Of a stretch of 64,000 bases of DNA, positions 21,289 to 21,752 are shown piece by piece (position 1 is the stretch's first letter; the number at the start of each line of letters is the position of its first letter). The DNA is from an uncultured Poribacteria bacterium (lineage in GTDB: Bacteria > Poribacteria > WGA-4E > WGA-3G), in the NCBI GenBank assembly GCA_951813565.1, contig OX638351.1:3520001-3584000 (forward strand), read 5' to 3'. The position numbers and the translations under genes are program-made. The notes under the pieces are model-generated. The model did no database searches. It was not told where the DNA came from and worked only from the letters and a program-made list of their open reading frames with translations.

Positions 21289-21464
21289 CGATTGCAATGC
21301 TCCTGAGTTTATCAACAGAATTCTCTTATTACGTATATCGTGATATTATCAGATACTTTGAAACACGTCAAGAAAATTGTTCAATAGAATAGGACTATTT
21401 GATGAATAAAAAATATGTGGACACTCCTTGTCCGCCCGATTTTTGAGATTTAAACAGGTAAATC

Positions 21465-21566
21465 CAAATCAACGCTGAATACGCGTTTGGTATTCATCCA
21501 AATCAACGCAGCATGCGCGTATGGCATGCTGCCAAATCAACGCAGCATGCGCGTATGGCATGCTGC
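21465..21566 (+). repeat. Array of three 34-nt micro-element units (1 of one variant + 2 of another)
   Basis: CAAATCAACGCTGAATACGCGTTTGGTATTCATC followed by 2 x CAAATCAACGCAGCATGCGCGTATGGCATGCTGC, directly before GGGGTTGAAAACCC. Confidence 0.9.
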
Positions 21567-21580
21567 GGGGTTGAAAACCC

Positions 21581-21615
21581 GCCAAATGCCAAAAAGCGCA
21601 TTTGGCGTTGATTCA
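21581..21615 (-). mobile_element. 35-nt micro-element inserted in a REP
   Basis: Removing it restores GGGGTTGAAAACCC|CTCCCACAAG exactly. An identical 35-mer is at 47988-48022. Confidence 0.85.
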
Positions 21616-21752
21616 CTCCCACAAGAGGATATATCCTTAAATTGACACCTATGGGTAGAGCACTGCGAAACCCAACAATAATCAACACAATCTATCTCAT
21701 ACACAATAATCCGAGATTCTCTATAAATGCCCTGTCATCCTAAGAATAATAC

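Follow-up and report, generated by a model that had tools for sequence, protein, structure and literature searches.

In Escherichia coli, BIME-2 and atypical BIMEs (REP y and z2 with linkers) are intergenic mosaics of short hairpin repeats and conserved linkers, in which REPs alternate in orientation, both carrying GTAG, and a Y1 transposase gene (TnpArep, or RAYT) is flanked by REPs. Tandem copies are described as well conserved, indeed near-identical, at each locus, with numbers that vary between loci and strains, and the authors proposed for them a history of "diversification followed by local amplification" (PMC3333891). The same source reports that TnpArep recombination in vitro adds a REP, and presents a model whereby a BIME array gains a supplementary unit through TnpArep (PMC3333891). 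TnpArep is reported to cleave on the 5′ or the 3′ side of the REP structure, and in one system cleavage was redirected to CC by a GTGG tag (PMC8266576). In Pseudomonas fluorescens SBW25, the inverted REP doublet (REPIN) is described as the basic element, REP clusters lie beside RAYT genes, and ordered tandem arrays of two REP types (there GI-GIII, up to 12) occur with 72- and 112-bp spacings that include flanking DNA; some clusters are reported to arise by insertion of a REPIN into or next to another REPIN (PMC3116915). CGTC-tagged REPs and Neisseria mosaics are described as palindromic families with a conserved unpaired tag and no dedicated transposase, interleaved with other repeats; the CGTC-tagged REPs have stems of 8-9 bp and loops of 4-5 nt, and head-to-tail dimers are said there to be negligible (PMC3733652).

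The window considered here is a 64,000-nt stretch of the closed 5.43-Mb genome (43% G+C) of a Candidatus Poribacteria sponge symbiont. At 21.46 kb and 16.3 kb it contains arrays of short hairpin units (termed U) that abut the hairpin of a REP (termed R). Among known systems, BIME or REP-cluster amplification as described in E. coli and Pseudomonas comes closest. Like the E. coli elements, the arrays are intergenic mosaics of hairpin repeats and conserved linkers with near-identical copies per locus and locus-variable tandem number, a RAYT-type Y1 transposase gene is flanked by REPs, and a comparable two-step history may apply. Unlike them, what is arrayed here belongs to a second family of hairpins, has a non-GTAG 12-nt head and is repeated head-to-tail, and it stands at the feet of a tagged REP, not flanking RAYT genes. 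The inverted REP doublet, the REP clusters beside RAYT genes, and the ordered tandem arrays of two types recall SBW25, but the units here abut with no spacer, and U-unit loops can themselves contain head-tagged modules. As compared with the CGTC families, the tag differs, the stem is 7 bp and the loop 7-8 nt, and head-to-tail arrangement is the rule; the palindromic family, conserved unpaired tag, lack of a dedicated transposase and interleaving with other repeats are shared.

Results

Structure of the array and its paralogues

Tandem Repeats Finder describes the array as 3.0 copies of period 34 at 21464-21566 (88% matches, score 150). Together with direct reading, this agrees with the initial annotation, which had reported three 34-nt units of two variants abutting the REP hairpin, here placed at 21464-21565 (Table 1). 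Each unit consists of the 12-nt head CCAAATCAACGC and a hairpin with a 7-bp stem and 7-nt loop. Two divergent genes flank the array, which is upstream of a TTGAC...ATAAT resembling a promoter and kept in relatives; the region 21410-21680 has a folding energy of -57.4 kcal/mol (z = -6.4). In the closest paralogue (genome 2683500), an intact left REP, CTCTTGTGGGAGGGAGACCTTGTCCGCCCGAT, aligns with the degenerate copy at 21415..21440, with 97% identity for that part. The junction running from the spacer through unit 1 to the start of unit 2 (21445/21454-21517/18) is matched exactly in short-read contigs from three runs of three studies (X1, X4, X8). Short-read contigs from four runs of four studies all break at ~21455 and 21626, and only small pieces span single junctions.

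A fourth, inverted unit, overlooked in the first reading, lies between the hairpin and CTCCCACAAGAG (21582-21615); the order after it is CTCCCACAAGAG, then GATATATCCTTAAATTGAC.

Table 1. Features of the two U arrays and of the empty site. Coordinates are those of the window.
Feature	Coordinates	Strand	Remarks
REP of the 16.3-kb locus, head and hairpin GGGGTTTTCAACCCC	16306..16332	+	
Nine identical 35-nt U units, type T; stem TGAATGC, loop GCGTGTAG; slot as at 21.46 kb	16333..16647	-	
REP-distal T-type unit, interrupted by a 91-nt element (16666-16756)	16648..16774	-	
Degenerate left REP, remnant of head and hairpin (...GTGGACACTCCTTGTCCGCCCGAT), part of the composite element	21415..21440	+	Alignment with paralogue
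REP-doublet spacer, AAAT at its end	21441..21463	+	Spacer TTTTTGAGATTTAAACAGGTAAAT identical in paralogue at genome 2683500
U unit 1, type t; head CCAAATCAACGC, stem TGAATAC/GTATTCA, loop GCGTTTG	21464..21497	+	
U unit 2, type A; head and stem AGCATGC/GCATGCT, loop GCGTATG	21498..21531	+	
U unit 3, type A; no difference from unit 2	21532..21565	+	
REP hairpin C GGGGTTGAAAACCC G, REP reading on the minus strand	21566..21581	-	GGGGTTGAAAACCC itself 21567-21580
Single inverted U unit, type C; stem CAAATGC, slot between REP head and REP hairpin	21582..21615	-	
REP head CTCTTGTGGGAG (here as CTCCCACAAGAG), with the GTGG variant of the GTAG tag inside	21616..21627	-	
Further shared modules: GTCAATTTAAGGATATATC, then second hairpin repeat GTTGGGTTTCGCAGTGCTCTACCCA	21628..21676	-	Exact genome copies of probes: 24+29 and 39
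Empty REP: AAATC GGGGTTGAAAACCCC TCCTACAAGAA, both slots without a U unit	59415..59445	-	AAATC+GGGGTTGAAAACCCC = 59415-59434

At the second array, Tandem Repeats Finder reports 9.5 copies of period 35 at 16332-16663 (99% matches). It has the same hairpin as the 21.46-kb array and shares the flank CAATTTAAGGATATATCTCTTGTGGGAG, found at 16290-16317 on the plus strand and as the reverse complement at 21616-21646; the proposal that the two arrays occupy one slot is borne out by this comparison, as is the presence of an empty form of the site (Table 1). Sequence similarity supports the 21.46-kb and 16.3-kb loci as paralogous copies of one composite element.

The 91-nt element that interrupts a U unit of the 16.3-kb array, likewise overlooked in the first reading, has 11-nt inverted ends, ATACCAAATTA. 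Another copy is found just upstream of a TnpB copy (genome 2684055), and related sequence occurs upstream of the RAYT at 5070893. Between the two arrays, an IS1595-family transposase gene is encoded on the minus strand at 18770-19648 (DDE_Tnp_IS1595, E = 5.5e-37).

The R repeat and RAYT genes

The hairpin GGGGTTGAAAACCC with its head CTCTTGTGGGAG is a genuine REP. The head CTCTTGT(G/A)GGAG stands directly 5′ of the hairpin GGGGTTTTCAACCCC; the GTGG form is common and GTAG also occurs, giving R the tag characteristic of REPs. Matches to the head with up to two mismatches number 448 and 481 on the two strands, and 180 nearest inverted pairs were counted, ~120 of them less than 420 bp apart, a high-copy repeat with frequent doublets. 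The base element of 36-70 bp comprises head, hairpin GGGGTTTTCAACCCC, GAT and spacer followed by the inverted counterpart, and is best classed as a REP doublet, REPIN-like in form.

Ten Y1-transposase matches were found in the genome, three of them RAYT-like. The G000 RAYT near 242 kb scores 132.6 bits on NCBIfam NF047646 (REP-associated tyrosine transposase; cut-off 80), and among solved structures its best relative is TnpArep of E. coli (4er8, E = 1.2e-8). Repeats of the form TGT[AG]GGAG plus hairpin flank RAYT genes within 400 nt at 12 of 20 loci of the genus, often in tandem; at one such locus (L136 of G006), four copies of TGTGGGAGGGGTTTACAACCCCGAT lie immediately 3′ of the RAYT gene.

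Several further arrangements of REPs and RAYT genes were observed. A RAYT homologue within the window (29545-30015, minus strand) has 62% identity to the intact one near genome 242 kb and one in-frame TAG, and is probably a pseudogene; GTAGGAGCGACC-type REPs lie downstream of it and one TGTAGGAGGG...-type REP upstream. Downstream of the intact RAYT (L129, genome 242.5 kb), inverted GTAG-type REPs (GTCGCGAGCTGGAGCTCGCTCCTACAGGAAGA...), at least seven in number, follow one another in tandem, and upstream of it a U unit is wedged within a REP head, reading CTTCCTGT, then the unit (GAATCAACGC-hairpin-GC), then GGGAGCGAGC. At 57616-57745 of the window, a 46-nt unit made of the R REP (head, hairpin and GAT) and a 17-nt linker is present in 2.8 tandem copies; a similar array, with four copies of a 40-nt unit, directly follows the G006 RAYT gene. 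Two inverted R REPs, 1739 bp apart (57707-59445), bracket an ordinary 390-aa gene (57750-58922, minus strand).

The U unit family

The 12-nt U head occurs in 357 exact copies in the 5.43-Mb genome, versus ~0.3 expected per strand. A perfect 7-bp stem follows 182 of the 357 exact heads, as compared with none of 7140 shuffled tails and 968 of 7140 in an arm-swap control, in which the 3′ arm was taken from another unit. A looser head search recovered 365 units with a perfect 7-bp stem, falling into six main stem types (CAAATGC, 147; AGCATGC, 114; TGAATGC, 39; CGAATGC, 28; CAAATAC, 15; TGAATAC, 15). These six types differ on both arms, which suggests that the hairpin has been maintained by compensatory change. 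The unit variants are distinct families across the genome (the stems CAAATGC, AGCATGC and TGAATGC being the most numerous) and did not arise by point mutation of a local duplicate, in keeping with the initial annotation, which had argued that slippage alone cannot stack different variants.

All 37 genus genomes searched contain the head 12-mer; copy number ranges from 1 to 357, with the maximum in the present genome, and does not exceed background (≤6) in the other genera sampled from the phylum. Arrays with at least three heads were found in 9 of 40 genus genomes, the stems being different in other species, and the head is constant across the genus while stems vary (G018, G051, G012 and others carry other stems). 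The 34-nt U units thus form a second hairpin family beside the REP, one specific to the genus. No Rfam family reached its gathering score within the window, and among the matches listed in a search of the literature on Poribacteria repeats, judged on titles and abstracts, no description of R or U was found.

Another species of the genus, G018, contains homogeneous arrays of 3 to 6 units at at least 13 loci (L099, L114, L119 and others). Their stem, CGAATCC...GGAATTCG, is unlike those of the present genome, and each locus has private loop variants.

Insertion slots and the composite element

A genome-wide listing of doublets includes identical base elements that are either empty or contain 1 to 6 units. 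Comparison of filled and empty doublets gives exact insertion points: the head-side slot separates GGGAG from GGGTTTTC, and the spacer-side slot separates the AAAT of the spacer from CGGGG. The units stand head-to-tail at both feet of the R hairpin and point toward it in both slots. The initial annotation had placed the units at a single defined site next to the REP, and the exactness of these insertion points upholds that placement. Parsing of the whole genome yielded 386 arrays, of which 328 are single units and 58 contain 2 to 9 units; 67 of the parsed arrays occupy the slot that separates the REP head from its hairpin.

U units also occur 5′ of other hairpins starting with GGG, and the loops of U units can enclose modules whose head is the same or nearly so (e.g., AGCATGCG[...]CGTATGGCATGCTG). 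Among ~257 units that are not internal to arrays, GGG comes next downstream in ~217-220, and the upstream neighbour varies. As terminal units are nearly always placed before GGG, targeted insertion, if any, would fall at the proximal end. The spacer-side slot often contains T and then A next to the hairpin (genome 734278, 1111672, 2324217, 3143796 and 533484). Left and right flank types of the composite elements are shuffled (e.g., genome 2321831), suggesting that recombination between dispersed copies is common. REPs and other conserved motifs in fixed order, with tandem copies conserved within a locus, give these elements the makeup of a BIME-like mosaic.

Unit order and identity

The initial annotation proposed that units are acquired in sequence at the REP-proximal end, with shared distal and variable proximal units. 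Order is indeed non-random: among the multi-unit arrays of the head-side slot in this genome, the hairpin-distal unit is type A in 32 of 34 and the proximal unit is type C in 27 of 34 and A in 7 of 34, although these counts, like those of unit identity, are not independent, since the composite elements are copies of each other. The distal unit is thus more uniform than the proximal one (32/34 vs. 27/34), as a polar model predicts. That much of the proposal stands; duplicates are found at both ends of arrays.

When units are grouped by array and type, 16 of 19 groups consist of identical units (75 of 81 pairs), as compared with 0.15-0.26 between arrays. Identity so much higher within arrays than between them indicates that the repeats were copied locally, without outside acquisition. 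The series A, AC, ACA, ACAC, ACACA and ACACAC contains one private loop variant per array. Privately marked duplicates are found at the distal end in the arrays AAAAC (genome 5273367; marked by the loop GAGTTTG, which is exclusive to that array), AAC (4162205) and C'C'C (1504791), and duplicates at the proximal end in tAA (21.46 kb), TATTT (genome 918100) and the T run at 16.3 kb; duplicated units are as frequent in the REP-distal as in the proximal position.

Core-to-core unequal crossover never duplicates the unit nearest the hairpin, because no head follows that unit. Three arrays (t-A-A, T-A-T-T-T and the 16.3-kb T run) do have a duplicated hairpin-nearest unit, which counts against crossover of this kind; the odd-length arrays ACA and ACACA require a one-unit proximal change or recombination with another copy. 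Hybrid middle units, with the 5′ arm of the downstream neighbour joined to the 3′ arm of the upstream neighbour, are found in three arrays of related genomes (G006 L121, G007 L104 and G002 L106), and point to unequal crossover inside the array.

The distal duplicates and internal hybrids argue against growth confined to the REP-proximal end. Nor does an array serve as a record of insertion order, given that repeated units are locally identical and neither unique spacers nor cassettes are present. CRISPR leader-end and integron attI addition, to which the array had been likened, share with it a fixed position by a conserved structured site and units of similar size; the analogy fails in that the units here abut, are copied from neighbours, and change at more than one end. 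Polar, chronological acquisition of U units is not supported.

Direct assignment of the array to either of these systems was also rejected. For CRISPR, the variable 22-23 nt are hairpins of about six resident types in abutting units, with no unique spacers; for integrons, the 34-nt units contain no ORF, and there are no gene cassettes with attC.

Search for an associated enzyme and for relatives of the locus

No transposase consistently flanked by U units was identified among the Y1 transposase and RAYT loci examined. No U head lies within 1.5 kb of the Y1 transposase genes of the genome (12-mer test). At the RAYT loci of the genus, core-like 9-mers occur within 350 nt in 4 of 20, with a hairpin in only 2 of those; a further U-like unit precedes the G000 RAYT at 5070893. 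The head CCAAATCAACGC contains no GTAG-type tag, and U therefore differs from REPs in both its tag and its scarcity beside RAYT genes. No repeated gene was found bracketed by U units 350-2500 bp apart, and no autonomous element with the REP head as its ends appeared among the listed inverted head pairs 500-4000 bp apart (MITE test). Target-site duplications were not evident in the listed flanks of doublets on non-systematic inspection. The Pfam-scanned ORFs beside both arrays included no integrase-type gene, and among the Y1 transposase genes examined there was no recombinase linked to the arrays.

Two resident mobile systems were considered as sources of the repeats and rejected. The ends of an IS200/IS605 element of 1732 bp (...CCCCCTGCCTTTAGGTAGGGGATG on the left, ...CCTTTAGGTAGTGGGTACCTATGAC on the right) are unrelated to U, which argues against U as an end or miniature of this element. 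The 36-bp palindrome (TTTAATGACGT...ACGTCATTAAA) of a Xer-like mini-recombinase of this genome is unrelated to R or U. The IS200/IS605 element (~1732 bp, TnpA and TnpB) is present in four full copies, including those at genome 3744522-3746253 and 228278-230009, with at least 11 derivatives of ~1254 bp from which most of TnpA is missing.

A protein search with the neighbouring gene identified 80 related loci, and all relatives of this gene carry the name Candidatus Poribacteria. When the 700 nt upstream of 52 Poribacteria-type loci were screened for U and R motifs, none had the mosaic, and 8 gave a single loose match. Alignment of 7 of these 52 upstream regions found no alignable intergenic DNA past the promoter, and DNA matches in 30 relatives were confined to parts of genes or to dispersed repeats. 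Cumulative GC skew of the closed genome is weak and shows no clear V, with a minimum at ~0.49 Mb and a maximum at ~5.05 Mb.

Discussion

The U arrays are probably a BIME-like mosaic of two hairpin repeats, grown mainly by local copying and recombination. Array anatomy, covariation of the stem arms, confinement to the genus, slots both empty and filled, local identity and hybrid units are all directly observed; the history that connects them would run as follows. A resident pair of units (t-A or A-C) may have been inherited along with the composite element, and then amplified locally by unequal crossover or slippage with a period of one or two units; recombination among more than 100 dispersed copies would have reshuffled the resulting arrays. 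Under inheritance of a pair followed by local amplification, the 21.46-kb array can be read as the common T-A pair in which the A unit was duplicated once. For the first entry of U into the slots, the most likely route would be single-strand cleavage and joining at the hairpin feet. A RAYT route may apply to this step or to proximal additions, at a low probability overall, since TnpArep cuts where both slots lie.

Extending such an activity to the growth of the arrays as a whole seems unlikely. Under directional RAYT-type growth, the REP would be cut at the foot of its hairpin and a U copy from the same array added next to the hairpin by strand transfer or primed copying. The exact coincidence of the two slots with the 5′ and 3′ hairpin feet of the REP is consistent with this, as are the GGG that follows most non-internal units while their upstream neighbour varies, and the proximal duplicates of tAA, TATTT and the T run, which lie beyond the reach of core-to-core crossover. 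Published work offers both a TnpArep model that adds a unit to a BIME array (PMC3333891) and cleavage on either side of a REP, redirected to CC by a GTGG tag (PMC8266576). Yet the privately marked distal duplicates (AAAAC, AAC and C'C'C) and the hybrid units internal to arrays lie away from the hairpin, and strict alternation of A and C would require an alternating donor. The rarity of U-like sequence near RAYT genes of the genus and the lack of a GTAG-type tag in U also argue against it.

Also distinctly unlikely is a closely related reading, in which U would be a passenger of the REP/RAYT system: the RAYT would join or copy an unrelated, tag-less hairpin at the feet of its own REP, unit by unit, on the hairpin side. 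Were this true, REP-adjacent arrays would owe their direction to a domesticated transposase that works on a second substrate, and the empty and filled slots of the genus would amount to a natural in vivo assay of RAYT strand transfer.

A host function, with the head as a binding site for a protein (on DNA or RNA) or the hairpins stabilising or insulating transcripts, and with copy number under selection, we regard as very unlikely. The 12-nt head is identical across the genus while stems change, and is present in every genus genome searched; the array itself lies between divergent genes, upstream of the promoter-like TTGAC...ATAAT conserved in relatives. These data would suit a bound or structural element, but the absence of the mosaic upstream in the 52 Poribacteria-type loci indicates that it is dispensable at this gene, and per-genome copy number ranges from 1 to 357 within the genus. 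The AATCAA of the U head appears to resemble half of the IHF consensus, a resemblance that can be counted on either side, as only the first half fits. In E. coli, REPs and BIMEs are reported to bind IHF, gyrase and Pol I (PMC3333891).

A true chronological record in the CRISPR or integron sense, with foreign or distant units captured at a fixed entry by a dedicated recombinase and the newest beside the REP, would account for the fixed slot, the heterogeneous arrays and the non-random order, but is extremely improbable given that the units come from a few resident families with no unique sequences, that repeated units are identical to their neighbours, that 34-nt units are too small for cassettes, that no recombinase among the genes examined is linked to the arrays and the Xer-like gene has an unrelated palindrome, and that duplicates and hybrids lie away from the proposed entry end.

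The multiplication and diversification of REPs and BIMEs have so far been argued from a few proteobacterial models. With a BIME-like mosaic grown mainly by local copying and recombination, this Poribacteria genus would provide a second and very modular case, offering a RAYT-type REP whose hairpin has an exact slot at each foot and a genus-specific, tag-less unit that stacks there. Such stacks of hairpins should not be taken for CRISPR-like memory. Since paralogous empty, single and multiple states occur in one closed genome, the competing routes of unequal crossover, recombination between copies and transposase-mediated addition become testable.
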